A stretch of 64,000 nt of DNA, taken from positions 73,273-137,272 of the forward strand of contig JAMCUI010000004.1 of assembly GCA_023379265.1 (NCBI GenBank), in the 5' to 3' direction. This DNA is from Patescibacteria group bacterium. Lineage in GTDB: Bacteria > Patescibacteriota > Microgenomatia > 2-02-FULL-39-11. This document shows positions 44,848 through 63,426 of the stretch, one piece after another. The notes beneath the pieces are model-generated. The model ran no database searches. It saw only the letters and a list, made by a program, of their open reading frames with translations, and was not told the origin of the DNA. The position numbers were made by a program, and so were the translations under genes. Every line of letters begins with the position of its first letter. Within the stretch, counting starts at the first letter, position 1.

Positions 44848-44935
44848 TAACAACAGGACTATCTTAGATTTTTTGGGAGAACAAATAAAATTCTTAAATT
44901 GATAAATTATTCCAAAAGGAGCATAATAAGTCACC

Positions 44936-45896: not shown

Positions 45897-47804
45897 ATGA
45901 GCTATCCTCCAGTACCAGAAATGCGCATGTCGCAGCCATTGGTTGCCCCCCGGGAAAATCTACCCGTGGCCTCCCCTATCCGGCCGGTGGCCGCCGAACA
46001 CAAAGCCCGTATAGTTACTCCCGAGGCAAAAAACAGAGCTCAGGCAATTCTGGCATCCAAAAAGCAAGCGCTTGAAGCCGAACAACGCCGCCTTGCCTGG
46101 AACTTAAAACAGGGCAACTGTATCAGGCTGGACCAGCTTACCCGCGACTACGACAACGAAATACTGCGCTATCAGCAAGCGCTTGATGGTCTTGCCGCGG
46201 GCGATAACGGCCAGGCCCGTGACCTTCTTGAACAGCAAATCTGCCGCAACTTGCAGTCATCCGCTCAGCTGAGATCTTATCAGAGCGAAATGACACAGGA
46301 TTATGTCCAGGCTGGCGGGCAACTGCAGGAGGCACGAAATATGTTAAATACGGACTCAAACGACAGGCTCAGGTATTCAAACCCGCAGGAGCTGGACATG
46401 GCGATAAACAAAATGCTTCTGGAGCAAGTCTACCAGGCCAACCCCGCATGGAGGGGCAGCAAAAACCCGGTTTTTATCGCGTCCCGTGATGCTGAAGTCG
46501 TCAGGCTGAAAAATATGCTGGCTTTGACCACTCCCGACCAGCTTCTCTCCCAGGCGCGCAAATTGGCCCAAAACCCAAAAGATGCAAACGGCAGGCTGGG
46601 TCTTTTTGTCCAGATACAATTCAAAGAGATTAGCATGCTTGAAGAACAGAGGGGACAAATGCACTCTATCGTCCAATCACACGAAAACCTTGAAAGGGAG
46701 AATTTGGAAATGGATGGGCTTGTTATAGATCTGGGAGGCCAACTGTCAAATCATCCTGACAGGCTGTCCCAGCGCCAACAAATTCTCCAGCAACTGAAAA
46801 ATGCAGCTGAAACCGATCCCGCCAAAAGTTATGAACAGATTTTGCAAAGCGCAAAAGAAAGTGGCGTGGCAGTAGAACAGAATTTTGCGGCCACATACAG
46901 GCAAATTGCAGATGAACGAGCCAAAGTGGAATACGCGCTGAAAAAAGCAGAAAGCAAACACAATGACCGTGTAGTCAGACTCCACAGACTGCGACTGTCC
47001 AGACTTTCTCTTCTGGAATACCGGCTTTCCGAGACGTACAATATCCACCGGCAAAAAAACCCGGGCAAAAATCCGCCGGCCTTAAAAGAGCTTGCTGCCA
47101 CAAACCAGATGGAAGAACAAAGACAACCGGAAGCTTCAGCAAAGCCCCAGACAAATATTGCACGTTCTCCTACAATTGCCTCCGCCCCCATGGTAAACAA
47201 ACCGGCTGCCTCTCCCACCGCCAGCAACAGGCAAGAATCCGCCGCGCCACCGGTTGAAATGAAAATAAAAACATCCATTGGGAAAAGCCAAATCGACCAG
47301 ATTATTGACGAGTCGCACGGAGCCTGGCGGACGGTAAATTCACGTGTAGTTGCCATTTCAGTCCTAAATGAACTTGAAGGAAATCTTGGCTACTCTTTTC
47401 CTTTGCTTGATAGGACCGAAATAGCTTATGGCATTCCCAAGACTGTGATGCCTGATAATATTTCGCTAAATCCCGACGGCCAACCTCCGGCAGCGTGGTT
47501 GGAGATTGACGTTCCCGTAGGACCGGGAAAACCTGCCAGAAGAGTGGCGATAAACAACACCGCTGAGCTAAACGCGGCAATTGCCTATGCCAAGCAAGTC
47601 AGACTGCTTGACGGCAGGCTAAACCCTCACCCGATGTCACTAATTCATCTGGTAATGCGTGATGATATAGCCCAGCAATTCACTGTGGACCGGCTCAGAC
47701 AAAATCCACAAGTGCTCAATCAAATTGCAAGTGATCTCATCCACTTTTCCGACCAGTCTCAGCCGCCCAAACGCCGCCTCGAATCCGTAAGATTTACTAT
47801 CTAA
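45897..47804 (+). CDS. hypothetical Gln/Leu-rich coiled-coil protein (635 aa), GC-rich
   Basis: Long intact ORF; heptad-like Q/L/E-rich stretches; no enzymatic motif. Confidence 0.45.
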   Translation: MSYPPVPEMRMSQPLVAPRENLPVASPIRPVAAEHKARIVTPEAKNRAQAILASKKQALEAEQRRLAWNLKQGNCIRLDQLTRDYDNEILRYQQALDGLAAGDNGQARDLLEQQICRNLQSSAQLRSYQSEMTQDYVQAGGQLQEARNMLNTDSNDRLRYSNPQELDMAINKMLLEQVYQANPAWRGSKNPVFIASRDAEVVRLKNMLALTTPDQLLSQARKLAQNPKDANGRLGLFVQIQFKEISMLEEQRGQMHSIVQSHENLERENLEMDGLVIDLGGQLSNHPDRLSQRQQILQQLKNAAETDPAKSYEQILQSAKESGVAVEQNFAATYRQIADERAKVEYALKKAESKHNDRVVRLHRLRLSRLSLLEYRLSETYNIHRQKNPGKNPPALKELAATNQMEEQRQPEASAKPQTNIARSPTIASAPMVNKPAASPTASNRQESAAPPVEMKIKTSIGKSQIDQIIDESHGAWRTVNSRVVAISVLNELEGNLGYSFPLLDRTEIAYGIPKTVMPDNISLNPDGQPPAAWLEIDVPVGPGKPARRVAINNTAELNAAIAYAKQVRLLDGRLNPHPMSLIHLVMRDDIAQQFTVDRLRQNPQVLNQIASDLIHFSDQSQPPKRRLESVRFTI

Positions 47805-47891
47805 TCAAGTTTGCCATCAGTAGTTACGCACTCTGTATCTTATATCCTGTTTCACGTAACTCAGGTTTGCAACTGAGTTACTCAGTATATA

Positions 47892-47965
47892 ACCATCTAT
47901 GCTTCGGCTACGTCTCAGCACTTATCTGCTTTTTTGGCTCTACGAGCTTCAAACCAGAGTAAGAT
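47892..47965. repeat. Left copy of ~74-bp inverted repeat (partner at 59634-59706, 3 mismatches); overlaps the start codon and first ~22 codons of the 47899 gene
   Basis: Reverse complement of 47892-47965 aligns with 59634-59706. Confidence 0.85.
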
Positions 47966-48546
47966 GGGTATATAATAATCCCGACATGCCGGGCAAAGAA
48001 CATTTTTCTTTCAGGAATGATTTCCAACTGGGCTCACCTGCAGATTTTCAAGTGAGACAAACGGGCGACAGAATCCTCAGGGAACATCACCTGGATCTGA
48101 CGGTGACGGATCTGGACGTGATGCTTTCGCTTACTTCCCTGCCGCGCAACAACCGCACATTTGAACACATCAGGGATGACTGCATCACTCTCAATCCCCC
48201 TTCAGCCCGTCCCAACGCGCAACTCACCAGACATCCGGAATATACAGACTATGCCAATCGGGCTCTGGCTCTTACACTAAAAAGGATGGAACGGCAAGAT
48301 AGGATCAGACGGAGGGCAACAAACAGTCATGATGGAGAACTTTATGACATCACCTCAAGAGGACGGGAACAGCTCAGGAAAGCAAAAAGAGTCTTTTCAG
48401 CACTTCCCGCGCCAGAGTCTAAAAGATATGGAGATACTGGCTCAATCACGGGCATCATGCAAATATTCCCCGACAGTATCATCTCCTTTATCAAAAGCCT
48501 CAAAAGGCACAAAAGGAAATTTTCCCGTAGATTAAGTCAGAGATAG
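47899..48546 (+). CDS. hypothetical protein
   Basis: 215-aa ORF; N-terminus encoded by the inverted repeat. Confidence 0.4.
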   Translation: MLRLRLSTYLLFWLYELQTRVRWVYNNPDMPGKEHFSFRNDFQLGSPADFQVRQTGDRILREHHLDLTVTDLDVMLSLTSLPRNNRTFEHIRDDCITLNPPSARPNAQLTRHPEYTDYANRALALTLKRMERQDRIRRRATNSHDGELYDITSRGREQLRKAKRVFSALPAPESKRYGDTGSITGIMQIFPDSIISFIKSLKRHKRKFSRRLSQR

Positions 48547-48822
48547 AATAATAAGTAGAGAAACTAGAACTTATCAAAACTATGATTTTGAACGTAAGTC
48601 ATAGTATTCCATCAAGCTCGAATTTGAGGTTTTGATACCAGTTAAATGAAAGATAGCGGGATGGGTTTTTGGGGGTTGGTAAAAAATTGGCAATTTTGGG
48701 AAAATTGCGGATTTGTTTTTTGTTTACCCCAGAGGAGGTGAATTTCCCGAGAGAGTCGGGTGCCAGACCGGAAAAGCATCCGGCACCCTCATCCAGGCCG
48801 ATTGGATAATCATTTTTCATCT

Positions 48823-49284
48823 TCACCAAAACTTTATCGGGAAGATGATCGCGGCGGCTCCCCAAAGAAGCAGACCCACCGCGAGGGTGAAAAGGTATTT
48901 CCTTACGGGAATTAGAAGTGGTTCGCTAGACTGCTGTGTCACTTGCTTTCGCGTGACGAAGTAACGCAGCACCCGGGGAAATGCAATCCCGGTTCCGCCT
49001 ACAAGCGAACCCCAACAGGTAATTCCCTGCAGGAAAACCCATGAGCCAAACCAAAACCGGAAGAGGAAAAAAGCCACCTCGGGGTTTTGGATCAGCCAAC
49101 TGACTGTCCAATCAAACTTTGCGACGAACAAGTCCCAGTTTGTCATGTTCTGCCTCCTCAGAAAGATTTTTGAAAATACCGCATTGGAAAAGGCAAATTT
49201 TGCCTTCTCTATTGCGGTATCTTCCTCCCTTCCCGCTATCTTTTCAAAGAACAAAAAGAAAACGTCATAAACTTTCAGCCGCAA
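48823..49284 (-). CDS. hypothetical small membrane protein (start probably internal, MTNWDLF...)
   Basis: Hydrophobic helices FFLFRFWFGSWVFL, LAVGLLLWGAAAIIFPI. Confidence 0.4.
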   Translation of the reverse strand: MRLKVYDVFFLFFEKIAGREEDTAIEKAKFAFSNAVFSKIFLRRQNMTNWDLFVAKFDWTVSWLIQNPEVAFFLFRFWFGSWVFLQGITCWGSLVGGTGIAFPRVLRYFVTRKQVTQQSSEPLLIPVRKYLFTLAVGLLLWGAAAIIFPIKFW

Positions 49285-49363
49285 AAAAGCTGATATTTAT
49301 GAAATTTCGGGAATTATAGCACATTTCTTGACTATAGGTTAAATCCATCATAAAATTCCTTTC

Positions 49364-51499
49364 ATGCCGCACGAAAGACTAGGAAGATTATCACAACAGT
49401 TTGCCCAAAACGGAAGACAATACGTCGAGGATAGGATCCCCAGATATATACCTATTCCCGTGGCAAGAGGCATTGCTGAAGCAACTCAATTTATCCCAGA
49501 ACGTCTTAGAAGACCGGTTATAGGTTTAGCGGACCGACTTCCATTCGCGCCGGGTGCAGCGGCGGAAATTGCCAAAAGACAAACCTGGGGATATTTCCAT
49601 GAAATACTAAAGGGTGCAGCGGAAAGTAAAGAACAGTTACCATCAAAAGAATATCAACTAACGGCAGCAAGAGCGGAGTTATACGGGCAATCAAGAATTG
49701 ACATTATGATGTTCTACAAACCGTTTCCTGACCGGCCAAGAAGGAAGAATAAAATCTATCCGCCAAGAACAGGTTTTTTTGATAGAAGACTGAACGCACT
49801 GCTTTCTCCACATACCAGTAACGGACTTCCTGATGAATGGTTTCTTCGGGATGCCGATGGCAGATATATTCAGCGGGAGGAGGGGCTTGACGCAAAACTT
49901 CTCCATGAAATGTATTATGCATTGCCTGATAGGCGTGCTGCTTATTTTGAGATGGAAAAAATCTTTGATGAGGTAGTAAGACAAGAAATACCCCCGGTTG
50001 GACAAGATGTACTAAACCGGTTGAGATTTTTGGGCATGTCAAATGAAGAAGAATTTGTTAATACTACTGAGGAAAATTTATTAAATAGGATAAATGCCAA
50101 AATTAATCAGATTGCAGGAACAAATAGGAATAAAAAATTTAGTTTGAAAAATCTGACAGAGTTTATGAACATGGCTCGCCAATCAGACGCGATAAGAAGG
50201 AAGGAAGATCCGAAACATAAAGGCAAGAGAAGAACTGGAGAATCTTATTATTGCCATTACCTTGCTTCTGCCTGGTTTCTATGGACAATGATAGAAGAAG
50301 ACCTCACAACTGAACAGGATGTTTTAGACGCTTTGGAAGATGTAGAAACTATGATGGTACATGACATCATGGAAGACCTTCCCTACAAACTCAGAACGCA
50401 ATATGATCCTGAAAATCAGGAAAACAGATTTTTCCTTGATTTGGAAATACCTCAACCGATCGATATAAACGGAAGGGCACCAATAGTTACAGACTTATCC
50501 GAGGATATCACACCAGTGGTAACAATCGAAAAAAAAGGTGACAGTGATGAATACCAGTATATCCTCTGGAAAAAAAGTAAAACTCTTAGCATAGAGCTTA
50601 GTCGAAACCAATGGCTTATTTTAGAAGCCATGCACAAAGAAAAAGATGATGAAAGTGGATTTATATGGCTTGAGAAAATCAAAAATATTTTCGATCCCAA
50701 CGACCCTACTCCCCAAAGGAAAAATTACCTCATAAAAAAAGCTGCTAGGTGTAAATCTGCCGATAGGTTGGCGAACTTACTCACGATTACTTCCGCCGGA
50801 GGACCTTTTTACGACGTAGTAAGAAAACTAAACGAAACTATTTATGGAGGCAAATATCTTGCCTGGCTATCAAATTTTGGAGATCTGGGACCGGTAGGTA
50901 CAATAGATCGATTGAAAAAAATTGCCAAAAATAATAGATTTGTTCTTCTTCTCTCTGCTATACCAATTATTGCTGAAATGGAAAAAAGGAATATCATGAT
51001 TAAATTCGGACAAAAACTGATGGAAAAAATAAGAGAAAATACTGATAAACCTTGGGCAAAACAAATTATATATATTATTGATAAGAATATACGATATCCG
51101 CATGGCGGTCCCAATCCTTTACCCTATGGTTTAAGAAGATTGGAAGATCTTAAAGCGTGTTACAGGATACCTTCTGAATTTGATGACTATATTTTGTCTT
51201 CGGAAAATCTGCATCACTATCTAAGTCTTGAACAATTTGTACAGCAAGAAAACTTTTTCCCACAAAATCAGCCAATAGAATTTGTTCACTTCAAACACCT
51301 TATAAATCGCTTGGAAACATTTGAGAAATGGATGATGCCATATGAAGGAATACTTCCGGGAGGAGTAGATGATTATTTCGGACCGAGACCTCTTCTTTAT
51401 GTGGATTTTTTCACTATTAGGGATATGACTTCTGAATTTATGGAACAGATGGCAGAAACAATTGCCTGGGGTAAAGCTTATGAATACGAAGAAGAATAA
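49364..51499 (+). CDS. divergent HD-domain protein of the RelA/SpoT (RSH) hydrolase type with long unique N- and C-terminal regions
   Basis: HD region YYCHYLASAWFL ... MMVHDIMEDLP ... RCKSADRLANLLT (~ LADRLHNMRT). Confidence 0.5.
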   Translation: MPHERLGRLSQQFAQNGRQYVEDRIPRYIPIPVARGIAEATQFIPERLRRPVIGLADRLPFAPGAAAEIAKRQTWGYFHEILKGAAESKEQLPSKEYQLTAARAELYGQSRIDIMMFYKPFPDRPRRKNKIYPPRTGFFDRRLNALLSPHTSNGLPDEWFLRDADGRYIQREEGLDAKLLHEMYYALPDRRAAYFEMEKIFDEVVRQEIPPVGQDVLNRLRFLGMSNEEEFVNTTEENLLNRINAKINQIAGTNRNKKFSLKNLTEFMNMARQSDAIRRKEDPKHKGKRRTGESYYCHYLASAWFLWTMIEEDLTTEQDVLDALEDVETMMVHDIMEDLPYKLRTQYDPENQENRFFLDLEIPQPIDINGRAPIVTDLSEDITPVVTIEKKGDSDEYQYILWKKSKTLSIELSRNQWLILEAMHKEKDDESGFIWLEKIKNIFDPNDPTPQRKNYLIKKAARCKSADRLANLLTITSAGGPFYDVVRKLNETIYGGKYLAWLSNFGDLGPVGTIDRLKKIAKNNRFVLLLSAIPIIAEMEKRNIMIKFGQKLMEKIRENTDKPWAKQIIYIIDKNIRYPHGGPNPLPYGLRRLEDLKACYRIPSEFDDYILSSENLHHYLSLEQFVQQENFFPQNQPIEFVHFKHLINRLETFEKWMMPYEGILPGGVDDYFGPRPLLYVDFFTIRDMTSEFMEQMAETIAWGKAYEYEEE

Positions 51500-51744
51500 A
51501 TTAACTCTGTTGAAAACAAATAATACGAAATAGAGATTCAATTAAACGCAGGTCTGGCGATGAATATAATTTCGTGAGGCGGACTGCTATCAGCCTTTTT
51601 CTCCAATCTGACATCTCTAGGACAGGACATACGAAGTGGACAATCTTTATCAATACAAGTTGCGGTTTTGGAATCGATAGAGGGAGCTTTGATATTGGCA
51701 ATATCTCCGCGGGATATACAATTTGCTTCCAGAAAGACCATAAT

Positions 51745-52209
51745 TCAGACTATTTTTTCTCCCAATTGATACCGGCAGAATCTGGAAACAGTGATATTTT
51801 CTCCCAGTTTTCCTATCACCTGTTTGACTAATTTCTCAATCGTTAAAGACGGATCTCTAATATATTCCTGTGCCAGAAGCGCTTTCACATCTTTTGGGCC
51901 CATCGAGGCTATCTGCAGACAAATTTCGTGTGAAAGATCCCTAAAATCGTCAGTCTTTGCGACAAAATCAGTCTCACAAAGAATCTCGAGAATCACTCCG
52001 ACTTTGCCCCCTGCATGAATATAACTATCGACAATTCCTGCATGTGTGGCACGGTCCGCTTTTTTCTCTGCTTTCTCCACTCCCCATTTATTGAGAAGCT
52101 CAACGGCTTTTTTCTCGTCCCCCTTCGTCTCCTCTAAAGCTCTCCGGCAATCCATCACTCCGGCGCCGGTCCTTTCTCTAAGTTTTTTTATCTGGTCAAC
52201 GGAAATCAT
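51745..52209 (-). CDS. tsf: elongation factor Ts (short form)
   Basis: UBA-like N-terminus LRERTGAGVMDCRRALEE and EF-Ts core; immediately downstream of rpsB. Confidence 0.8.
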   Translation of the reverse strand: MISVDQIKKLRERTGAGVMDCRRALEETKGDEKKAVELLNKWGVEKAEKKADRATHAGIVDSYIHAGGKVGVILEILCETDFVAKTDDFRDLSHEICLQIASMGPKDVKALLAQEYIRDPSLTIEKLVKQVIGKLGENITVSRFCRYQLGEKIV

Positions 52210-52244
52210 ATTTCATTTAACAATTAACAGATAACAAATTTCTC

Positions 52245-53084
52245 TTATTTTGTCATTTTCACCGGTTGTTTTCTGGTCTCAGTTTCCTTATCTTTGTTAT
52301 CTTTTTTTTGTTCCTTGTTCTCTGCTTGCCCTGAGTCCTTCCTTATGTCGGGACGGAGGGTTTTTTGTTCTTTGTTCTCTGCTTTCTCTTCCTTTTTCTC
52401 CCTCTCCGCTTTTCCTTCGGCATATGCATCTGCAATATAATCTATAATTATTTTTATACTACCTACGGCATCGTCATTGGCAGGGATGGGATAGTCTACA
52501 TCTGTCGGATCAACATTAGTATCGACTATCGCCGCTATGGGCATCTCATACTGCTGAGCTTCCCGCACACTAGCCACTTCACGCTTGAGATCCACTATAA
52601 AAAGCGCATCCGGTAAAGTCACCAGATCAGCCACTCCCGAATAGACCATTTCGCTTTTGCGCAACTCTTTTTCCAGTTTGACAATCTCATGTTTAGGAAA
52701 TTTAGTCCAGCTACCATCTGTCCTTTCTTTCCTCATCCTGTTTATCTTGGCGATATTGTTTTTCACCTGATCCCAGTTGGTGATAAATCCACCAATCCAA
52801 CGGTTGGTCAAATATGGCAATCCTGCGCGCTTGGCAGCTTCAGTGACTACGCCTTTTGCCTGTTTTTTGGTGGCTACCATAAGGACGGTCTTGCCTTCCT
52901 TGGCCAAATCGCGGAAATATCCGGCTGTCTTTTTTAGCCCATCACGTGTCTGAACTAGATCAATAATATGCAGTCCTTCCCGCACCTGGTATATGTAAGA
53001 AGCTGCTTTTGGATGCCACCTTTCTTTCTTATGTCCGAAATGGCAACCGGCTTCAAGAAGATCTTTAAGTGATATGTCTTTCAT
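52245..53084 (-). CDS. rpsB: 30S ribosomal protein S2 with Lys/Glu-rich C-terminal extension
   Basis: LLEAGCHFGHKKERWHPK signature. Confidence 0.9.
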   Translation of the reverse strand: MKDISLKDLLEAGCHFGHKKERWHPKAASYIYQVREGLHIIDLVQTRDGLKKTAGYFRDLAKEGKTVLMVATKKQAKGVVTEAAKRAGLPYLTNRWIGGFITNWDQVKNNIAKINRMRKERTDGSWTKFPKHEIVKLEKELRKSEMVYSGVADLVTLPDALFIVDLKREVASVREAQQYEMPIAAIVDTNVDPTDVDYPIPANDDAVGSIKIIIDYIADAYAEGKAEREKKEEKAENKEQKTLRPDIRKDSGQAENKEQKKDNKDKETETRKQPVKMTK

Positions 53085-53298
53085 ATAAATTGCGAATTAC
53101 CCAATTTCCCAATTGAGAATTAATAACGTATTAACCCAAAAAAATAAGCAGAGACACTTCTCTGCTTTGTAGAAAAATGTCTCCTTATCCCGATTTTATC
53201 GGGACCTTCCACCCGGACATTTTTTATCAGGAGACACATCCGGATGTGTGTGATTTTTATATTATAACCTATTGCAGAAATTTATCAAGCACAAGATC

Positions 53299-54582
53299 TT
53301 ATCTAGCGTACATATCTATTATGCCCGGATTAAAAAAGTTGACCAATTCTCTAATAAAGGTGTTATTAAATATGTCATATTGGCTGAAAACAGTCTTATT
53401 TTGCGGGATGCTGTTTATGCTCGCAGAATTTAACCTCTCTACTAATTCCTGTAACCTCAGCCCTTTATGATAATCCAGTACAAAATCCGTCCCCAACTCA
53501 TCTGCCCAGAGATCCTGAGCTACCGTAGAATCAAAAAAACCGGTAGCCAAAATTCTGTTATATTCATCCAAATCCATCTCACCTGGGCTGGCTATGCCTG
53601 CCTTTTCCCGCATCCACTTCACTGACTCTGATATTTCCAAAGCTATTCCTGAAAGCCTCATGAACCATTGGACTTTGTCATAAATATCCCTTCCCAAAAA
53701 ATCCGACATTATTTTTGCCGCACGAGGGACTCTTCCAATTTCCGGTATTTTGTCCTTTTGAGCCAGAAAATACATGTGTGCCAACCAGGCAAACTGGGCA
53801 AAATGCACTACCCTATCGGCCCCCAGACATCTGTTATAAATATCCATCGCTGAATCAGTGCATTGGGTAATAGAAAGAGGATAGACTCTGGGATGTTTCC
53901 CGTATACTTTCATCCACCAAGGAATCTCTTTATCATGCTCCATCCAGTACGCATTGGATATCGGCACATTCAGTTTTTGGGGACTAGTGATATCATCTCT
54001 TGTAAGATAAGGACTGAAGATTACGGCAAAAGAGTAAAGAGCAAGATGCAGGGCGTTCTCGTCGCTTACATTCCTGCCTGGAAATTCTTTTTGCAGTGCG
54101 GCTCTGGCATAACCCAAATGTTTATTAAACTCATTTCCTAAAAGAGGCGGATGTCCAAAAATAGGAGGTGTCGCAAAATATTCCCTTAAGGCAATTTGTA
54201 ATATCCCGGGATTATTCCAATCCGGATTATTCAGTAATTTATCGTGAAGTGCCACATGCATCAGAAAATTCTTATGGCCGTCTTTATCCCTGCCATCAAC
54301 CAGGGGAGGCAATCCTTGCCTATTGTGATACTCCAGCCACCCGGGAGAAGGAAAATTAATTCCGCGTTTTGAATTTTCACTACTGTTGGTGGGGTCAATA
54401 AGATAGTTTGCAGCTCTTGCCGCCAATCTTCCTCCAGTTCTTGCTGCTGCCACAGCATTATATATTTGGTAAGCGACCTCCATATCAGCCGCAACACCTG
54501 CCACGAATGCGCCTCCGGCAAATAAAGCGCCTTTTTCCAGAAACTCGCGCCTGCTTATAGGTGATTCCAGTTGGTTTTGCAT
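53299..54582 (-). CDS. hypothetical exported protein with twin-arginine (Tat) signal peptide
   Basis: N-terminal SRREFLEKGALFAGGAFVAGVAA. Confidence 0.5.
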   Translation of the reverse strand: MQNQLESPISRREFLEKGALFAGGAFVAGVAADMEVAYQIYNAVAAARTGGRLAARAANYLIDPTNSSENSKRGINFPSPGWLEYHNRQGLPPLVDGRDKDGHKNFLMHVALHDKLLNNPDWNNPGILQIALREYFATPPIFGHPPLLGNEFNKHLGYARAALQKEFPGRNVSDENALHLALYSFAVIFSPYLTRDDITSPQKLNVPISNAYWMEHDKEIPWWMKVYGKHPRVYPLSITQCTDSAMDIYNRCLGADRVVHFAQFAWLAHMYFLAQKDKIPEIGRVPRAAKIMSDFLGRDIYDKVQWFMRLSGIALEISESVKWMREKAGIASPGEMDLDEYNRILATGFFDSTVAQDLWADELGTDFVLDYHKGLRLQELVERLNSASINSIPQNKTVFSQYDIFNNTFIRELVNFFNPGIIDMYAR

Positions 54583-54675
54583 CTGATTTTTTGAGGCAGA
54601 AATAATTTAGGGAGAAAACTGAACCAAGTTTGACATGATCCTGGGTCTATAGATCTGGATTTGATTTGACATGCG

Positions 54676-55314
54676 TTATCGCAATTTTGGATTTTTCCCG
54701 ACTTTCCCTTCTACTCTTTCCCAAATCAACCCCTCCACAATTTCAATTTCCTTGCTGCTGTCGACAACAAAATATCTGTCACTGAATTTTTTTGCGAGCA
54801 GGTGATAGCCTCTATACACTCTCTCGTAAAAATCTTTCTGTTGCAGGTCAAGCCTATCGATCTTGTCTGTCCCGTTACGGCGGGCAAAGCCTGTTTCACA
54901 TGACACATCAAGTAGGATAGTCAAGTCAGGCATCACTCCCTCCAAAGCCGCTTTATTCAACTCCAAAATCTCTTTTTCTCCCAACTGCCGTCCATAACCT
55001 TGATAGGCTAGTGATGAATCGATATATCGGTCGCAAACCACAATTTTCCCCTCTGAGAGTGAGGGTTTTATTATCTCCCTTACATGCTGGGCGCGCGAGG
55101 CGGCCATAAGATATGCCTCTGTCACTGCGGTCAAATCCACATTTTCCCGGCCGTGGGTGATACTTCTAATCTCCTCCCCTATCCTTGTCCCGCCCGGCTC
55201 CCGCGTCACCACGATGTCATACCCTTCCTCCTTGAGCCTGCTCCCCAGAAGCCCGACCTGAGTGGACTTGCCGCTACCCTCAATACCCTCAAAAGTGATA
55301 AAAAATCCTTTCAT
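54676..55314 (-). CDS. tmk: thymidylate kinase
   Basis: P-loop FITFEGIEGSGKST, DRY motif, LID region. Confidence 0.9.
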   Translation of the reverse strand: MKGFFITFEGIEGSGKSTQVGLLGSRLKEEGYDIVVTREPGGTRIGEEIRSITHGRENVDLTAVTEAYLMAASRAQHVREIIKPSLSEGKIVVCDRYIDSSLAYQGYGRQLGEKEILELNKAALEGVMPDLTILLDVSCETGFARRNGTDKIDRLDLQQKDFYERVYRGYHLLAKKFSDRYFVVDSSKEIEIVEGLIWERVEGKVGKNPKLR

Positions 55315-55389
55315 CCATATCTATTCTATCAGATTTTCACAATCATCTCTTGCCGCAGCGTATAATATGATATAAATTGAAATTAAACC

Positions 55390-56976
55390 ATGAATGACTT
55401 GATAGGGGGAGCGGAAATTCTTACTACCGCTCCAGTTGTAAACAGCCAGCCAAAAGATGCGTCTATTTTTGCACGGCCAATCCAAAAAAATCCTCAAAAT
55501 CTGGAACTTTCACGAAACGGTACAGGAAATTACGAGTCCAACCTTCAGCTTATGATCGGACTTCTTGGCCATAAGGCTATTCAGGAAGCGTTTGGGTGTT
55601 CCGGCAACGCTTTACCAATGGTTGCGTTTACCGATTCACTCGATAAGCAACAGGTAGGAGGTGTGGCCAAAGCCGGAGAATTTATCAGAACTCAATTAAA
55701 TTATGCCGCTGAGGAAACCCGCGCGCAAATAGAATCTGCGCTTCCCATTGGCTATCAGACTATATGGCGTTCGGAACTACCGTTTGAACCATCCCATGAA
55801 CAAATTCTCAGAATAGAAAATGCCTTAAAGGATGAAAAACGTATCAAAACCGCTGTAAGACTGCTTGGATTTCCTTCGCTTCAGAGTCTTGCAATCCAAT
55901 CAATTACAAATCCGGACTTCAAAATTGTAGTTAGAAAAAACGATAAGCATATGCCCCAATATCTTAGGGCGGCAGACATAGTCTCACAAAAACTTGGCCG
56001 GCGCCCACCCGGACAAGGTGAAGATATAGTAATAAATCTTAGAGATATCTACAATATCGTTCGCAATTCGACACCAGAGGAATTAAGTAAATCGGCTTTT
56101 CTTGAGACATTGGCTTTTGCCGCTGATATATCTTCGTATTATTTTGTCGATTCCAGCATGCTGCCAAACCAGGCATTTGAATCCGGAGAAAAAATACTTG
56201 ATAAATATCTCAAAGTAATCCTGTCTGCCGGAACGAGAGTTGACCTCATTGGTTTTTCGGTCAGGGAGGGAGACGCAAAAGCCAAAACGGTGCTGCAAAA
56301 TGTCCTTCAAAGTTTTAACGGAAATCAGTGGGGATACAGATCGCCCATGGATTTCATGCAAAAGGGCGCAGACGTCAATGGGCTTTATAAAGAGTTTATC
56401 GACATGCTCCAACCCACCACAGGTGAACAGGGTCAAGTCTTGCCTCCCAGGGTTATTATTACTTTTACGGAATGTAAAATAAACCCTCTTGCTGCGCAAG
56501 GACAACAATCAGGTGAAGGACCTTCCCCCTCTCACGAAATTTCAAACGATTATTATTCTGACGCGGGCCATACTCTGTGGGCTGTTTTACAATGGATTAC
56601 AAGAGCTGCAAATTTGGAAAAAGGGAGCTCATACGAACCTCTCCTCAACCTTATGACAGCATCAAGATCAGACAGATTCAGTTCTGCAAAGGGCGCGCTT
56701 AGGGTGTTGGATCCCCTTATTTCTTCCCCACATAAATTTTTTCTCGCCCAGATAGAATGGCCAGTAATAGAAACGGACGTACGAACCGTAAATCGGGGAA
56801 AACAATCACCAAAAGTGTTCAAAAGCTATAGATTTTCACCGCATTTCGACACTGTCCCTATCAGGGATGCAAAAATCTTGCCTTTCAATGTCAGATCGCT
56901 AAGGAAGGCAGTCCAAAAAAATGGTCTGAGAATGATAAAGAGGCTTCAGGACGAGTCTAAAGGAAAGGACAATTGA
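55390..56976 (+). CDS. hypothetical protein
   Basis: 528-aa ORF, no domain recognised. Confidence 0.35.
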   Translation: MNDLIGGAEILTTAPVVNSQPKDASIFARPIQKNPQNLELSRNGTGNYESNLQLMIGLLGHKAIQEAFGCSGNALPMVAFTDSLDKQQVGGVAKAGEFIRTQLNYAAEETRAQIESALPIGYQTIWRSELPFEPSHEQILRIENALKDEKRIKTAVRLLGFPSLQSLAIQSITNPDFKIVVRKNDKHMPQYLRAADIVSQKLGRRPPGQGEDIVINLRDIYNIVRNSTPEELSKSAFLETLAFAADISSYYFVDSSMLPNQAFESGEKILDKYLKVILSAGTRVDLIGFSVREGDAKAKTVLQNVLQSFNGNQWGYRSPMDFMQKGADVNGLYKEFIDMLQPTTGEQGQVLPPRVIITFTECKINPLAAQGQQSGEGPSPSHEISNDYYSDAGHTLWAVLQWITRAANLEKGSSYEPLLNLMTASRSDRFSSAKGALRVLDPLISSPHKFFLAQIEWPVIETDVRTVNRGKQSPKVFKSYRFSPHFDTVPIRDAKILPFNVRSLRKAVQKNGLRMIKRLQDESKGKDN

Positions 56977-58925
56977 TGATGAAAGGAATAATTAAAATTT
57001 CTCTTTATATTAGTCTCCTTCTTATATTGTTACTCCATCCAATAAGTGTAGAAGCCAAATCTTACTCCATCACCTCCGACATATACCACGTTCTTATAAA
57101 CAGCGACAAATCCATAGATATAGGAGAAGAGCTGACATATGATTTCTCAGGCAGCTTCAGCTGGGCAGACATGTATATACCCACAAACATCCAAAGGCAG
57201 AACCACAACTACAATGTCACAATTGACAACTTCACTATCTCTTCTGCCGACGGCAACCCGGTCACCCTACTCGAAGACAGACAGGAAGGAAACCGCTTTT
57301 ACGCAAAGTGGGGTTACCAGGCACAGGATGAGAAAAAGACATTCCTTATAAACTACCATGTTACAAATGCGATACAAAAATATCCACTGGTTGCCGAGTT
57401 GTACTGGCAAATTATAGGCAGCGACTGGACGGTTGGCCACTATAATATCGATATCACGGTCATTCTGCCGCAACCCGCCGCTTCAGCAGCCGATATAAAC
57501 GTCTGGGGACATGGTCCACTCAACGGGAAATCGGAAATTATCGATAAGCAAACGGCGCATTTTACCGCCTCTAGTGTTGCTGCCGGACAATTTATGGAGA
57601 TTAGACTTGTCTTTCCTTCCAGTCTTATTTCCGGCAAAACCGACGCCAATACCACTCTTTCCCAGATAAAAAATGGGGAAAACAGTTTTGTCAACCAGAC
57701 TATAAACGCCGCCAAAAATGCCCAGATTCTAAACAATATTCTCCCAAAGATTTTTTCAGGTATGGCAATTATTCCTCTTGCATGGATATTAATACTCATT
57801 TATATCTGGAAAAAATATGGTGAAGAATATAAAGTCAACGGTATACCCAAATACATTAGGGAATTGCCCTCCAATCTCTCACCATCAGAAGTAGACATAC
57901 TGGTAAACCAAGGTGACAAACCGGGTATAAAAGCTTTTACAGCTTCAATATTTGATCTGGCCCGGAGGGGGTTTATAAAAATTCACGACCAGGCCACCCC
58001 AAAAGCAGGTCTTTTTTCTTCAAAAATTGAATACGAGACTACCCTGGAACTTTCTGTCGACTGGCAAAAAAAAGAAAACAAACTTACTGATTATGAAAAT
58101 GACCTTTTATACCTTTTATTTTCTACCATTGGACGCGCACCCGCCGACTCTAAACCATCTGCAGTTAACCATAATGAAAGTATTAAATCCCAATCTCAAA
58201 GTGCAGGTGGGTCAGTTGCCGGCTATCTTGACAAGCTCTTGCACAAAAAGACAGCCTTTGAGGATAAAAACGATAATAAAGTGACTTTTGAAGAGGTAAA
58301 AAGCTGGCTAAAAGGAAATTCCGAGGAATTCACCACTTGGTTTTCCGACTGGCAGGATTCGGTAAAAAAAGAATCTCAAAAATATGCTTTTATCGAGAAA
58401 AAAAGTCGACAGATGTTTGTCGCCTGCTGGATAATTACATTTATTATTCTTTTTATCTCATTTAACCCTCTTCCTCTTATTGCGGCATTTATTATCATCC
58501 CCAAGATTAAACGCTGGGACCGAAAATGGGTAAAGGAAGCAGAAGAGTGGAAAGCCTTCAAACAATTCCTCAAAGATTTCGGCGGCTTTAAGAACTTGCC
58601 GCCTGAATCTTTTAAACTTTGGGAATTTTATCTCGTCTTTGCCATCCTTTTTGGAGTAGCAGATAAGATCATAAAGATGCTGCCGGCCATTCTAGCTAGT
58701 CCCCAAGCTGTTCATGCCGGATGGTACTATATGGCAACAAGCAGCAATCTTTCTGGCGGGTCAAATCTGGATGCTACTACTCAAATGGTAAATTCTCTAA
58801 ATATACTTACGTCGGAATTGCAAACGGCTTCGATTTCCTCATCACACTACTCATCAGGAGGAGGCGGTGGCTTTTCCGGAGGAGGCGGTGGCGGCGGGGG
58901 TGGTGGAGGAGGAGGCGCAGGATGA
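56973..58925 (+). CDS. DUF2207-family membrane protein with Gly-rich C-terminus
   Basis: Signal peptide, central/C-terminal TM helices, terminal SGGGGGFSGGGGGGGGGGGGGAG. Confidence 0.6.
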   Translation: MMMKGIIKISLYISLLLILLLHPISVEAKSYSITSDIYHVLINSDKSIDIGEELTYDFSGSFSWADMYIPTNIQRQNHNYNVTIDNFTISSADGNPVTLLEDRQEGNRFYAKWGYQAQDEKKTFLINYHVTNAIQKYPLVAELYWQIIGSDWTVGHYNIDITVILPQPAASAADINVWGHGPLNGKSEIIDKQTAHFTASSVAAGQFMEIRLVFPSSLISGKTDANTTLSQIKNGENSFVNQTINAAKNAQILNNILPKIFSGMAIIPLAWILILIYIWKKYGEEYKVNGIPKYIRELPSNLSPSEVDILVNQGDKPGIKAFTASIFDLARRGFIKIHDQATPKAGLFSSKIEYETTLELSVDWQKKENKLTDYENDLLYLLFSTIGRAPADSKPSAVNHNESIKSQSQSAGGSVAGYLDKLLHKKTAFEDKNDNKVTFEEVKSWLKGNSEEFTTWFSDWQDSVKKESQKYAFIEKKSRQMFVACWIITFIILFISFNPLPLIAAFIIIPKIKRWDRKWVKEAEEWKAFKQFLKDFGGFKNLPPESFKLWEFYLVFAILFGVADKIIKMLPAILASPQAVHAGWYYMATSSNLSGGSNLDATTQMVNSLNILTSELQTASISSSHYSSGGGGGFSGGGGGGGGGGGGGAG

Positions 58926-59140
58926 CAGAAAATATAGTTGTACTAAAAACTTACAGTTCCAGAATTGAGGCAGAACTTGTCAGGGGAAAACTGGAAACTG
59001 TCGGTATAGAATCATTTGTGATGGCTGACGATGCCGGAGGAATGTATCCCTTCCCCGCTCAGTCGGGGTTTGATAAAGTCAAGCTTTTTGTTCGCAAAAG
59101 TGACTTAAAAAATGCTCTGAAACTGCTTTGCCCCAATTGA
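58922..59140 (+). CDS. DUF2007-like small protein (putative signal-transducing domain)
   Basis: 72 aa; ATGA start/stop overlap with preceding gene; motif similar to DUF2007. Confidence 0.45.
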   Translation: MTENIVVLKTYSSRIEAELVRGKLETVGIESFVMADDAGGMYPFPAQSGFDKVKLFVRKSDLKNALKLLCPN

Positions 59141-59146
59141 ATTTTC

Positions 59147-59569
59147 TTATATCAATACCAATACAGCAGCCATAAAAAGAAGCGATACCAGCCTGAAAGC
59201 ATTATCAAGAACATATAATTCCCACGGCTTCTTTTCTGCACCAAATAAATATCCTGATAAGCTTGTTGTCGCTACAAAACCAAGCCATGCCCATACAGCA
59301 GTTTTGAGACCTACTGTAAGATTATAGGATCCTGGCTTGGTAAACCAGATGAAATGGAAGAGCACATACGCCATGACTGCTGAAGAAACAAACATCGTCA
59401 GGTATTTGCCATTCATGCCTTTCCTGGCTGCCTCCATTTGCTTCTCTGTTATCCCGGCCAGCTTCATCCATTGTTTGCCAAAAAGCGGACCGTACCAGAT
59501 AAATCCGGTAAGCATCGACACCAAAGCGGCTATTACAACTGAAAAATAATTCACAGGCACCAAAAACAT
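59147..59569 (-). CDS. DUF1761-like small membrane protein
   Basis: SD GGAGGTG; pattern ...VVIAALVSMLTGFIWYGPLFGKQW... Confidence 0.45.
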   Translation of the reverse strand: MFLVPVNYFSVVIAALVSMLTGFIWYGPLFGKQWMKLAGITEKQMEAARKGMNGKYLTMFVSSAVMAYVLFHFIWFTKPGSYNLTVGLKTAVWAWLGFVATTSLSGYLFGAEKKPWELYVLDNAFRLVSLLFMAAVLVLI

Positions 59570-59633
59570 CCTTCATCACCTCCTATCTTCATTGAGTATA
59601 AACACAATATATGACTTATCAATAACATATACA

Positions 59634-59706
59634 CATCTTATTCTGGTTCGAAGCTTGTAGAGCCAAAAAAGCAGATAAGTGCTGAGACGTAGCCGAAGCA
59701 TAGATG
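59634..59706. repeat. Right copy of ~74-bp inverted repeat (partner 47892-47965)
   Basis: See left copy. Confidence 0.85.
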
Positions 59707-59710
59707 GGTA

Positions 59711-60523
59711 TTAACTTCTGAAATACTCGAGAGTCAAGCATTTTACCGAGCCGCCACCCTTAAAATACTCCTCCATTTGGGTTTCAAATATTTCATAGCC
59801 TACTTTCAAAAGTTCGCTTTTGACATCTTTACCTACTCCGCGTCCGGTTATCACGGTATGGTCCCGGGAGAGAATATTGCAACACATAAACGGCATATCT
59901 GCTTTTTGGGCCAAAATGACTTTCTTGAAATTCTTTTTTATCTTTTCTACATCCTCGTTGCTGAAAGATGAAGGATTTATGACTACTTTGCCGTCTCCCA
60001 AAGGCGCAAAACAGGTATCCAGGTGGTAATAATACGGATCATTGACTTCAAAACTGATAACTTTCTCGCCTACTATCTTTTCTATATACTTCAGAGCTTC
60101 TTTTGATGTCCTCTTGCCCCAACCGCAAAAGAATTTTCCATCCCGGTAAAACATATCCCCCTGTCCTTCAAAATATATGCCCTCAGGTATCTTTTTTATC
60201 TTAAATCCCTTTTCCTTAAAATATTTTTCTGCCCAGTCTGCTTCCTTTCTCCTTTGCTGAAATCGGAAGTTTGACTTTATAAAAATATCATCTATGACAA
60301 AACCGTGGTTGGCGGCATAGACCATGTCGGGCAATCCGGGCTGCGCGTCAATCTCTTGCACCTCAAGATCCAGCTTCCTGTAAATATCTTTAAGATTTTT
60401 ATATTCCGATTTGACTTTTTGTTGATCAACCTTATTTTTGATATCCATCCACGGATTTATCTCATACTCTATTTGGTAATAGTCAGGCGGACACAAAAGG
60501 ACGGTCTTTATATCTTTTGACAT
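59711..60523 (-). CDS. amidinotransferase-superfamily enzyme (DDAH / arginine-deiminase / agmatine-deiminase-like)
   Basis: ~270 aa with C-terminal GGGSVKCLT catalytic-Cys-like motif. Confidence 0.5.
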   Translation of the reverse strand: MSKDIKTVLLCPPDYYQIEYEINPWMDIKNKVDQQKVKSEYKNLKDIYRKLDLEVQEIDAQPGLPDMVYAANHGFVIDDIFIKSNFRFQQRRKEADWAEKYFKEKGFKIKKIPEGIYFEGQGDMFYRDGKFFCGWGKRTSKEALKYIEKIVGEKVISFEVNDPYYYHLDTCFAPLGDGKVVINPSSFSNEDVEKIKKNFKKVILAQKADMPFMCCNILSRDHTVITGRGVGKDVKSELLKVGYEIFETQMEEYFKGGGSVKCLTLEYFRS

Positions 60524-60664
60524 AAATTGTGAGAAATATTACAAAGAATTAGTATGAGTGTATCGTCTGAGAGCAAAAATTGTCAATAAGGAAACCCGCT
60601 GGAGGCATCCGGCGGGTCATAAAGATTCCGCCATTTCCCTAAATACTCTCACAATTATCAGGCT

Positions 60665-61681
60665 TTACTTATTTGTCTCCAAATAATATTCCAAAAGAGT
60701 TCTAAAAAGTGCGGTTACTGGCACAGCCAATATCATGCCAAGTATTCCCCAGAGGTGCGCGCCAGCCACTACAGCAAAAAGTACAACAAATGGGTGGAGT
60801 TTTGTTGCCTTACCCAAGACGACAGGAATTATAAGTATGTCTTCAGCTTCGCGCAAAATAAAATAGGCCAGGGCAACCACCAACCCCTGCATAAGAGGTG
60901 GCAGATTGAGAGTATTTATACCATCAAATATTGCCACCAATACCGCTGCTGCCCCGGCGATAACCGGACCGACAATGGGAACAATTTCCGCGATGCCGGT
61001 AAATATTCCCAAAGTCAGAGCATATCTGACATGCAATAGGGACAACACAATAAACGACACGACAGCCATAAGAAATACCAGAAAAATCTGACCTCGCAAA
61101 TAATCATTCAGGACAGTACTTGTACGTGAGAAAATATCCTCAGCGATTTTCCTGTATTTTGGCGGTAGGCTTCCTATTAGTTTTCTTATCATCATATCCC
61201 CGTCTTTGAGAAAATAAAACCCTGAAACAAGAAAAATAAGAGTGGATACTATACCTGAAAGGGCCCCAGAAAAATAAGGAGTAAGACGGGTAGGCGTAAA
61301 TGAGTATACCAACTCGCGGTTTGCCGCCAGCTCCATGATGGTAAAACGTAACCAGTCCGGATAATCGGATAATTGGTTGGCAGAGATATAACGCAGTTTA
61401 CTGAGTTCACTACCCAATTCCCTTGATTCCCTAGCAAGAAGTATGCCTGACCTGGCTGAAGCAATGACGAGGATTGCAGCCACCAGAATATAAATTGTCA
61501 CTACACTCAAAGTTCTGGGTATATGCAACTTTTCTGAAAGAAATCTGACTGAAGGATTCAGTATATATGCTAATATAGCAGCCAGTATAAAGGGAGTAAG
61601 GACTCCTCTTATAACAAACAGGAAGAGCAAAGCTCCTGTAAAAAGGAGGGTCTTTACGGTATTCCTCTGGTCAATTTTCAT
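60665..61681 (-). CDS. AI-2E family transporter (UPF0118/PerM-like)
   Basis: 338 aa, ~8 TM, conserved family topology. Confidence 0.7.
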   Translation of the reverse strand: MKIDQRNTVKTLLFTGALLFLFVIRGVLTPFILAAILAYILNPSVRFLSEKLHIPRTLSVVTIYILVAAILVIASARSGILLARESRELGSELSKLRYISANQLSDYPDWLRFTIMELAANRELVYSFTPTRLTPYFSGALSGIVSTLIFLVSGFYFLKDGDMMIRKLIGSLPPKYRKIAEDIFSRTSTVLNDYLRGQIFLVFLMAVVSFIVLSLLHVRYALTLGIFTGIAEIVPIVGPVIAGAAAVLVAIFDGINTLNLPPLMQGLVVALAYFILREAEDILIIPVVLGKATKLHPFVVLFAVVAGAHLWGILGMILAVPVTALFRTLLEYYLETNK

Positions 61682-62130
61682 ACGTGGTATTTTTTCTTCA
61701 TTACTACCGATGCGGCTACAAAACCAATCCCGACAAGGATAAAAAATATAGGCAGGATTATTCCCGCTGCGCCTGCCAGTAGCCCTGCTGATGGTGTGGC
61801 GGTTGGAGTTGCAGGCACGATTGTGTCTGTTGGTGTCAGGCTGGGAGTATCGGTGGGAACTTCAGTAGGCAGCGCACGGTATACCGGTCTTGGTGTAGAT
61901 GTTGCTGAAGCGGGCACAGGAGTAAGTGTTTCAGTCGGGCCCGGTGTATTTGTCGGCCCTGACGTGGGAGTAATAGTAGGCGTATCTGACGATGCTGGAG
62001 TACCTGTGGCAGGAGCAGTTGTTGGAGTATTAGACTGCGCCAAAACAGAACCCTGTTTTGTCAAAATTACGGTAAGAAGGAATAATATGCTCAAAAAACA
62101 AAAAAATACCGCTTTTTTCATCATATTCAA
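61678..62130 (-). CDS. hypothetical secreted Pro/Thr-rich protein with C-terminal TM anchor
   Basis: Signal peptide, PT-rich repeats, C-terminal hydrophobic helix + KKKYHV. Confidence 0.4.
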   Translation of the reverse strand: MNMMKKAVFFCFLSILFLLTVILTKQGSVLAQSNTPTTAPATGTPASSDTPTITPTSGPTNTPGPTETLTPVPASATSTPRPVYRALPTEVPTDTPSLTPTDTIVPATPTATPSAGLLAGAAGIILPIFFILVGIGFVAASVVMKKKYHV

Positions 62131-62170
62131 ACGATAGCGTATTTTACATTATCGGGAATAAGAAGACAAG

Positions 62171-63382
62171 TTATTTATTAGAAGGTTTATAAAACTTTCT
62201 ACCCTTTAATTTTTCCGGCAAAAAGTATTTTCCTTCTGTTGGCCCGACATATCCCCCACTCCAGATATAATCCTTGGCATACCCCAACTGTTTCATCAGT
62301 TTTGTCGGTGCATTGCGAAGATGAAGAGGTACCGGTTCATTTGGTAATTCATAAACAGCACTTTTGGCTGCGGAAAGAGCGTTGGGTACTGCCCTGGACT
62401 TTGGCACGCGGGAAAGGTAAATGGCGGTATGAGCCAATATAAGTTGTGCCTCCGGCATACCAATTTTGGTCACAGCATCAAATGCAGCATTTGCCATAAT
62501 CAGCGCTCCGCGGTCGGCCATACCGATATCTTCTGAGGCTAGGATTATCATTCTTCGGGCTATAAATTTGGGATCCTCGCCGTTTTCTAGCATCCTGGCC
62601 AAATAATATAAAGCAGCATCGGGATCACTACCGCGCACCGATTTTATGAAAGCACTTATGATATTGTAATGTTCATCGGCTTTCTTATCATAAAGACCGG
62701 CCGAGCGTGTCTGGAAAACTTCTTTTACCAATTCATTATCAATATCCCTTTTTCTATATGCAGTCACTGCCATTTCCAAAGCGTTCAGCATTATCCGGGC
62801 ATCACCTCCGGAAAGTCGCATAAGGAGTTCGCTTGCATCTTTGTCAATTTTCTTCTTATATTTACCCAATCCGTCTTTGATGTCCGTCATTGCCCTTTGA
62901 ATAATTTTCTCCAAATCATCCTTTTCCAATCCTCTAAGCACAAACACCCTGCATCTTGACAACAAAGGACTGATTATCTCAAATGACGGGTTTTCTGTTG
63001 TTGCACCAATAAGAATTAGAATGTTTGACTCTACATGAGGCAAAAGGACATCCTGCTGGGCTTTATTCCAACGGTGTATCTCATCAATAAAAAGGATTGT
63101 CTTTTTACCTATTTGCTGGTTAAGTTTGGCTAAGTTAATAATTTTTAATAACGCTTCCTTACCGCTTTCTACAGCTGACAGTTGGTGGAAATCTGCCCCC
63201 GTTTCCTGTGAAATTATATAAGCTAATGTAGTCTTGCCGCTTCCCGGCGGCCCCCAGAAAATCATGGAAAAGAGATTGTCACCCTCAATCATCTTCCTTA
63301 TTATTCTCCCCCATCCAACCAGATGCTCTTGTCCGACAAAATCCGCAAGACTTTTGGGTCTCAGGCTGTAGGCTAAATTCAT
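62171..63382 (-). CDS. rarA: replication-associated recombination protein A (AAA+ ATPase)
   Basis: Walker A GPPGSGKTTLA, Walker B ILFIDEIHRWN, MgsA C-terminal domain. Confidence 0.85.
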   Translation of the reverse strand: MNLAYSLRPKSLADFVGQEHLVGWGRIIRKMIEGDNLFSMIFWGPPGSGKTTLAYIISQETGADFHQLSAVESGKEALLKIINLAKLNQQIGKKTILFIDEIHRWNKAQQDVLLPHVESNILILIGATTENPSFEIISPLLSRCRVFVLRGLEKDDLEKIIQRAMTDIKDGLGKYKKKIDKDASELLMRLSGGDARIMLNALEMAVTAYRKRDIDNELVKEVFQTRSAGLYDKKADEHYNIISAFIKSVRGSDPDAALYYLARMLENGEDPKFIARRMIILASEDIGMADRGALIMANAAFDAVTKIGMPEAQLILAHTAIYLSRVPKSRAVPNALSAAKSAVYELPNEPVPLHLRNAPTKLMKQLGYAKDYIWSGGYVGPTEGKYFLPEKLKGRKFYKPSNK

Positions 63383-63426
63383 GGCCTTATTGTATCACGG
63401 GATAAAAGGAGTTTAACGGAGAAAAT

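Follow-up and report, generated by a model that had tools for sequence, protein, structure and literature searches.

What does a pair of near-identical inverted repeats signify when the 11.7 kb between them carry core genes? The question is raised by a stretch of 64,000 nucleotides from a Patescibacteria group bacterium (NCBI GenBank assembly GCA_023379265.1, contig JAMCUI010000004.1), referred to here as the window, in which two short sequences face each other across tsf, rpsB and tmk. The original prediction, made from the letters alone, proposed that the arms are substrates for inversion of the enclosed block or for conversion of a promoter and 5′-end module. On balance, the arms are probably copies of one non-coding intergenic module of ~81 bp, which would act as a predicted promoter at the left site and be passive at the right, their inverted arrangement being incidental.

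A repeat search of the window returned arms at 47884-47973 and 59627-59716, each 90 nt long, which are 92% complementary and lie 11,653 nt apart. Within them, a cleanly aligned core of 81 nt (Table 1) contains four mismatches (95.1% identity), located at 47944, 47951, 47959 and 47967, and the first 51 nt of this core are identical in the two copies. The near-identity first reported, three differences in about 73 nt, was right, as three of the four mismatches fall within the earlier range of 73-74 nt. A 45-nt pattern from the core, searched with up to three mismatches, matched twice in the 64-kb window and not once in 100 shuffles. A weaker third copy was not found by blastn-short and nhmmer in the window, in about 11 kb of extra flank (~6.5 kb past its right end and ~4.4 kb past its left end) or in the sister species described below. 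Each copy lies 3′ of one gene and 5′ of another, and has the orientation of its downstream gene. The adjacent genes are not paralogous: downstream stand DUF1761 at one copy and a hypothetical gene with no Pfam family at the other, and upstream a dimethylarginine dimethylaminohydrolase (DDAH)/amidinotransferase-like gene and a 635-aa hypothetical gene. The similarity between the copies stops before both start codons. Clustering of the mismatches in the 3′ third was considered as a sign of gene conversion or of differential constraint and was rejected; given four mismatches in 81 nt, an identical run of at least 52 nt has P ~0.07, which is not significant.

The repeat is genuine and is not an assembly artefact, because the contig of an independent NCBI metagenome-assembled genome (MAG) holds both copies and unitigs from four runs reach all four junctions between flank and repeat. 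The MAG in question, GCA_023487465.1 (contig JAMDBJ010000029.1, 80 kb, deposited as 'Patescibacteria group bacterium'), is 99.8% identical to the window and has matching flanks at both copies. The window is also 100% identical to Logan unitigs of run SRR10278331, and Logan contig SRR10244963_8129 spans the right copy. The other Logan unitigs, which come from the four runs, end or begin inside the identical core, which is what a k=31 de Bruijn graph must produce where a repeat has two copies. This behaviour has a practical side: at either locus every k=31 unitig is interrupted by the identical 51 nt of the core, a possible point of misjoining or false inversion in MAGs of this lineage.

Both copies contain the ATG and the shared codons that had been pointed out (MLRLRLSTYLLFWLY followed by E or K), and the right copy does open a minus-strand open reading frame (ORF) of 41 aa plus stop upstream of DUF1761. 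The left copy had been read in the same spirit as the 5′ end of a gene starting at 47899, and this part of the original prediction does not hold. On comparative grounds the repeat is non-coding, because the orthologue in the sister species starts at the equivalent of ATG 47986, all four differences between the copies are non-synonymous and no Shine-Dalgarno sequence precedes 47899. The ATG of the sister orthologue aligns with ATG 47986, and tblastn similarity begins at residues 28-30 (PDMPGKEHFSF... in one and PEMTGKELFSF... in the other); the first 27 residues of the 215-aa ORF have no counterpart there. In the proposed frame the four differences read E/K, Q/R, V/I and W/C. The missing Shine-Dalgarno sequence contrasts with DUF1761, which carries GGAGGTGA. 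Among ~15 billion proteins, no peptide shared with another protein was found, the 215-aa ORF and a six-frame peptide concatenate each matching only that ORF. This self-match reached E=1e-5 over 25 residues, and the six-frame search was therefore sensitive enough. The deposited 215-aa hypothetical protein M1271_00975 most likely has a false N-terminus of 29 residues produced by the repeat, its true start lying at 47986.

The age of the repeat was approached through relatives, which were sought with the DDAH-like protein in one genome per GTDB species. The sole close relative, the sister species (L012, contig CAZFNL010000037.1), has a DDAH that is 94% identical at the amino acid level and is ~84% identical at the nucleotide level, ranging from about 78 to 94% across genes. 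The next DDAH homologues are at most 49% identical and too distant to inform, and a search of JGI metagenomes with a 427-aa protein found no intermediate relatives. The sister species is collinear, block by block, with window positions 47978-63383, and its orientation matches relative to both the DDAH side and the end of the 635-aa gene. Neither orthologous site in this species holds the repeat. The DDAH-DUF1761 spacer of the sister contains ~260 nt of unrelated sequence, after which window and sister are similar again from a TATAT immediately 3′ of the element onwards, across DUF1761's promoter-like site and Shine-Dalgarno sequence. The spacer upstream of the small orthologue contains ~65 nt of unrelated sequence. 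Because the sister is collinear across the block and without the repeat at both sites, the repeat appears to have been acquired recently and not to be an inversion scar. It would thus have arisen after the split from the sister species, double loss in the sister being a less simple alternative. A past inversion with duplication, as had been suggested, finds no support in this comparison: gene order and orientation to both outer flanks are the same where neither site holds the repeat.

The same sister spacer holds 45 nt (10849-10893) that are 84% identical to window positions 26631-26675, in the spacer between an M50 peptidase gene and DUF6909. This match may be another sign that short intergenic modules are reused in the lineage.

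A sigma-70-like site that agrees with the consensus at 10 of 12 positions is predicted at the 3′ end of the left copy (Table 1). Its -10 hexamer ends 9 nt before ATG 47986, and the 47986 gene has no Shine-Dalgarno sequence, which together suggest a leaderless or near-leaderless transcript. Three plus-strand genes (ATG at 44936, 47986 and 49364) share this geometry: each has a 10/12 predicted promoter, with 7-9 nt between the end of its -10 and the ATG, and lacks a Shine-Dalgarno sequence. The pattern suggests that these three genes, which belong to the putative island described below, are leaderless, whereas core genes such as DUF1761 have a strong Shine-Dalgarno sequence. Sigma-70-like sites are enriched over 44-64 kb (57 observed versus 38.7 +/- 6.2 in shuffles), and several sites of at least 10/12 stand just upstream of genes, namely rpsB, DDAH, DUF1761, the genes for the 711-aa and 153-aa proteins and the 44936 gene. 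Inside the element there is also a weak hairpin with a T6 run (AGCA-N6-TGCT-TTTTT).

These features can be joined in an account in which the module was copied ectopically, and in inverted orientation, in this lineage of Patescibacteria after the split from the sister species. The probable route would be copying, illegitimate or mediated by microhomology, with the DDAH-DUF1761 spacer as the source and the spacer upstream of the 47986 gene as the destination. By comparison with the sister species, the TATAT common to both copies is ancestral flank at the right locus; because the left copy also includes it, the right copy is suggested to be the donor, with copying from right to left. The module would comprise the weak hairpin, its T-run and, after these, a -35/-10 pair; in the left position it would provide TTCAAA-17-TATAAT for a leaderless transcript of the fast-evolving 47986 gene. 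No active function is likely for the right copy, given that DUF1761 retains, downstream of this copy, a conserved promoter and Shine-Dalgarno sequence of its own. A microhomology junction, as opposed to the footprint of a transposase, could account for the 8-bp 'duplication' that flanks the left copy. The inverted arrangement would be a by-product of copying, which may allow rare homologous inversion but would not constitute a switch. The earlier proposal of a duplicated or converted promoter module comes close to this explanation.

Several points weigh against ectopic copying of a promoter module. The comparison draws on a single relative with no outgroup and does not formally separate loss in the sister from gain here. 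Promoter activity, start site and leaderless translation are all read from consensus matches, and a 10/12 match is not rare. The term 'promoter module' would fit the left copy only, as the corresponding hexamers of the right copy are degraded (TTCGAA / TATGTT). The search for copies covered ~75 kb of a genome of ~1 Mb, and a larger family is possible. Finally, the perfect 8-bp direct repeat and the 6-bp inverted ends of the left copy also fit transposition. The feature itself is an ordinary two-copy intergenic repeat, one more case of promoter-region reuse, and opens no new question.

Transposition is the alternative that survives best, though it is unlikely. The repeat would then be a non-autonomous element resembling a MITE (miniature inverted-repeat transposable element), mobilised in trans by a transposase from another part of the genome and inserted twice independently at AT-rich, TATA-like intergenic targets, possibly with an outward promoter as in Correia, ERIC and REPIN elements. 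Its length of ~75-81 bp is within the MITE size range, and the element is missing from both orthologous sites in the sister, yet the sister spacers are replaced and offer no clean empty sites. The left copy ends in CCATCT...AGATGG, a 6-bp terminal inverted repeat, and RNA and DNA folding pairs the two ends, partly through G-U pairs; this terminal repeat is only 6 bp long and is reduced to 5 of 6 positions in the right copy (AGATGT). For the perfect 8-bp direct repeat on either side of the left copy, the base rate is about 1.3-1.6e-4 per position and spacing, or ~0.01 when boundary uncertainty is allowed for. At the right copy, however, the flanks do not match as those of a target-site duplication would (GTTAATAC versus GTATATGT), and the similarity between the copies runs into the supposed duplication (GTATAT), whose TATAT is the ancestral flank at the right locus.

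The copy number also argues against a MITE, as there are just two copies in ~75 kb and none in public collections or the protein set. An exact 22-mer from the core gave no match in collections of genomes, metagenomes and viral contigs; the species is evidently not represented in them, so that this negative is weak evidence as regards its own genome but stronger evidence where a widespread family is concerned. By blastn, plasmids yielded nothing and phages only two matches at chance level (E=0.2, Shigella virus Moo19). Among the window ORFs scanned, no transposase, integrase or invertase domain was found. A broader version, in which a lineage-restricted mobile module (MITE-like or copied by template switching) carries a 3′ promoter that makes downstream genes leaderless, and/or the 11.7-kb rpsB/tsf/tmk block inverts at low frequency in natural populations, is improbable. 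If true, such a mobile module or inversion in bacteria of the candidate phyla radiation (CPR) would be of moderate interest.

Inversion was the central suggestion of the original prediction, and there is little reason to expect it here. The arms would serve as working recombination sites, RecA-dependent or used by a site-specific invertase, that flip the block, or would be the scar of a past inversion with duplication. With 51 perfectly identical nt in a stretch of 81 nt at 95%, the arms surpass the minimum that RecA-mediated exchange usually needs, RecR is encoded in the window, and both arms are intergenic, so that inversion would break no gene. Short-read unitigs at k=31 break in the 51-nt core and can neither link the flanks nor rule out a minority orientation. 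Against this, the sister has identical gene order and orientation but no repeats, and thus no inversion appears to have accompanied the origin of the repeat. All three assemblies that span at least one arm (the window, GCA_023487465.1 and SRR10244963_8129) show the parental linkage of flanks with copy-specific variants. No invertase or recombinase was found in or near the block by Pfam search of all genes at 44-64 kb, several of which are hypotheticals without a family. Inversion would also set rpsB-tsf on the strand opposite frr, against a regional gene orientation and GC skew that are strongly one-sided.

The proposal of an inversion substrate therefore stands in principle, in that 51 identical nt could allow a rare RecA-type event, while no recombinant or inverted junction appears in the three spanning assemblies. 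The orientation heterogeneity that was looked for is not seen, every copy-spanning contig linking its flanks as the window does. As far as could be tested, then, no mixture of orientations is seen and the repeat is missing from the one available relative, a combination that points to a local duplication remnant, as the original prediction itself had stipulated.

A structured RNA deserves about as little credence as inversion. The element would be a small RNA, or a cis-regulatory leader or 3′-untranslated element shared by the two loci, such as a terminator or attenuator. In keeping with this, folding of the left copy is somewhat better than that of shuffles (z = -2.0 on the plus strand and -2.7 on the minus strand), its small hairpin is followed by the T6 run, and each copy comes directly after the end of its upstream gene. 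The right copy, however, folds no better than shuffles (z ~-0.8), and the G-to-A difference at 47944 breaks a predicted GGCTC/GAGCT hairpin with no compensating change. Two sequences allow no covariation test, and a terminator scan makes no call there. Nor is there an Rfam match: the whole window gives none at the gathering score, and at E up to 10 both loci return eukaryotic and archaeal snoRNA noise of 8-20 bits against cut-offs of 42-50.

Two further candidates were rejected. A composite transposon is contradicted by arms that are non-coding and by an enclosed block that is syntenic in the sister species. A prophage att site or a tRNA fragment was set aside as the window contains no tRNA or tmRNA. 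The weakest alternative, a peptide encoded by the repeat as a common N-terminal module or small leader ORF, is already largely refuted: both copies hold an ATG and an open frame and the NCBI annotation calls the 215-aa form, but the right-hand ORF stops after 41 aa in an AT-rich spacer and is called by no gene caller, and the sister, substitution, ribosome-binding-site and peptide-search results given above all tell against it.

Table 1. Positions (window coordinates) of the two repeat copies and of the features around them.
Feature	Position	Strand	Context
Left copy of the repeat	47893-47973	+	Intergenic, between the 635-aa hypothetical gene and the gene starting at 47986; weaker similarity back to 47884
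Right copy of the repeat	59627-59707	-	Intergenic; starts 2-3 nt past the DDAH-like stop; 58 nt separate its end from the DUF1761 ATG; weaker similarity as far as 59716
635-aa hypothetical island gene	45897-47804	+	Upstream of left copy
Hairpin, 9-bp stem (GTAACTCAG-N8-CTGAGTTAC)	47856-47881	+	Just upstream of left copy and outside the repeat; read from sequence
5′ member of direct repeat, GTATATAA	47885-47892	+	Flanks left copy; possible target-site duplication or microhomology junction
3′ member of direct repeat, GTATATAA	47968-47975	+	First 6 nt also in right copy
Predicted sigma-70-like promoter, TTCAAA-17-TATAAT (10/12)	47948-47976	+	-35 and most of -10 inside left copy; consensus match
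Predicted promoter-to-ATG stretches (10/12)	44899-44938, 47948-47988, 49328-49366	+	Consensus scan
Apparently spurious 29-codon N-terminal extension	47899-47985	+	Annotated as coding in the NCBI MAG (M1271_00975)
Probable true coding region of the '215-aa' ORF, 186 aa (MPGKEH...)	47986-48546	+	Fast-evolving hypothetical with no Pfam family; from alignment of the sister ATG
DUF1761 gene	59147-59569	-	Downstream of right copy; strong Shine-Dalgarno sequence
Spurious 41-aa ORF opened by right copy	59576-59701	-	Called as a gene in no assembly
Promoter-like site of DUF1761, TTGATA-16-TATACT	59595-59622	-	Downstream of right copy; conserved in the sister species
DDAH/amidinotransferase-like gene	59711-60523	-	Upstream of right copy

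The core genes named in the original prediction are indeed found between the arms, where Pfam recognises EF_TS, Ribosomal_S2 and Thymidylate_kin; the other enclosed genes are DUF2207, DUF1761 and several hypotheticals. Tsf is very short, with 154 aa (51745-52209). RpsB (52245-53084) has a lysine- and glutamate-rich C-terminal extension, which is encoded by imperfect repeats of 21-57 nt at 52304-52410. Between tmk and DUF2207 lies a gene for a 528-aa hypothetical protein (55390-56976) that is missing from the sister species (13512-13725 of its contig). No homologue of this protein besides itself was found in a database of 5.8 billion protein clusters, and the gene is an orphan that was either recently gained or else lost in the sister.

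Just outside the arms, the hairpin upstream of the left copy may be a 3′-end structure of the 635-aa gene. Beyond the right copy, the genes for the AI-2E transporter and DDAH are separated by an interval with a 57-bp indel (60598-60656), which sets the window strain (SRR10278331) apart from GCA_023487465.1 and from contigs of SRR10244963 and SRR10252151. The sister species has ~2 kb of extra sequence at the same position.

A region of ~22 kb (29000-51700) consists mostly of plus-strand genes and separates frr (28391-28993, minus strand) from tsf-rpsB (51745-53084, minus strand). Besides many hypothetical proteins it encodes a type IV coupling protein of the VirD4/TraG-like kind (29573-32056), and its GC content reaches 0.54, compared with a background of 0.42. 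The coupling protein gene is the only mobility-related gene among the window ORFs scanned. The region looks like an island that splits the neighbourhood in which rpsB-tsf-(pyrH)-frr usually stand together; the ORFs checked included no pyrH. The right end of the island at least, with the 635-aa and 711-aa genes, is common to the sister species.

Four related upstream modules of ~150-200 nt are found within the island (34230-34480, 35085-35300, 36880-37120 and 39510-39700), each placed before one of a series of consecutive high-GC hypothetical genes on the plus strand. Every one of them has a GC hairpin with a T-run, followed by the conserved boxes GCTCTTTAACAGTTGAATGATAACGGA, TTTGGCGCGAGAGAA and TTCTCAAGCGTCAGATGAA. 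They may represent a shared promoter or 5′-untranslated regulatory motif of the island and have no match in Rfam. The island also contains a perfect 44-bp tandem duplication (2.3 copies, 32670-32772) in the spacer downstream of the coupling protein gene.

Two tandem arrays are located elsewhere in the window. The first (3578-3956) consists of 5.0 copies of a 76-bp unit that are 100% identical; the unit length is not a multiple of three. This array adjoins and overlaps the 3′ end of recR (3883-4506, minus strand), and a Logan unitig breaks off ~30 nt inside the array. The array could reflect a very recent expansion, or the assembly may have collapsed or expanded it. The second (9791-9867) has 8.6 copies of the 9-bp unit ACTTTATGA and lies a few nucleotides beyond the stop end (9873) of a minus-strand ORF (9873-10733), hence downstream of it. 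It is a possible contingency or slippage tract.

The significance of the repeat is accordingly modest. If transcription data confirm the predicted promoter, the left copy would be a small case, from a reduced CPR genome, of a leaderless gene to which ectopic copying had brought its promoter.

Comparison with known systems places the repeat at some distance from the better characterised ones. Composite transposons and paired insertion sequences (IS) also have an inverted pair flanking a block of genes, but here the arms are 81 bp long and without a transposase, and the enclosed block is ancestral, being syntenic in a relative that lacks the arms. The original prediction was correct that this is not an IS element. 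Invertons, shufflons and switches of the fimS and hin types resemble the locus in that inverted repeats bracket a DNA segment. They differ in having an adjacent invertase, whereas no recombinase was found here, and in usually enclosing, within 0.1 to a few kb, a promoter or the variable ends of genes, not 11.7 kb of core genes. Populations contain such switches in either orientation; at the present locus only one is seen, and a collinear sister has none of the repeats.

Bacterial MITEs and the Correia, ERIC and REPIN families come closer. They share with the repeat a length of ~80 bp, an intergenic position, short inverted termini, a direct repeat (here at one copy) and a possible outward-facing promoter. 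These families differ in having tens to hundreds of copies against the two found here, longer terminal inverted repeats or defined hairpins against 6 bp, and consistent target-site duplications against one at a single copy. REPINs have, in addition, a cognate RAYT transposase, whereas no transposase is in view here.

The closest likeness is to the putative mobile promoters (PMPs), a class reportedly described by Matus-Garcia, Nijveen and van Passel in 2012. More than 4000 PMP families have been listed in 1362 genomes; most have two members, with a mean identity of ~92%, upstream of unrelated genes (PMC3575422). Membership is defined by a similarity of at least 80% over at least 50 nt within a window of -150 to -50 from the translation start (PMC3575422). 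The repeat, with 95% identity over 81 nt upstream of two non-homologous genes, agrees with the similarity threshold, and it likewise forms a two-member family with a -35/-10-like pair and no link to a known IS or Rfam family. The right copy, at -58 to -138, falls inside the positional window; the left copy, at -13 to -93 from ATG 47986, has 44 nt inside it, and with the annotated start at 47899 it would lie within the coding sequence. PMPs are an operational class without a defined mechanism, and the promoter of the present repeat is predicted by a consensus match.

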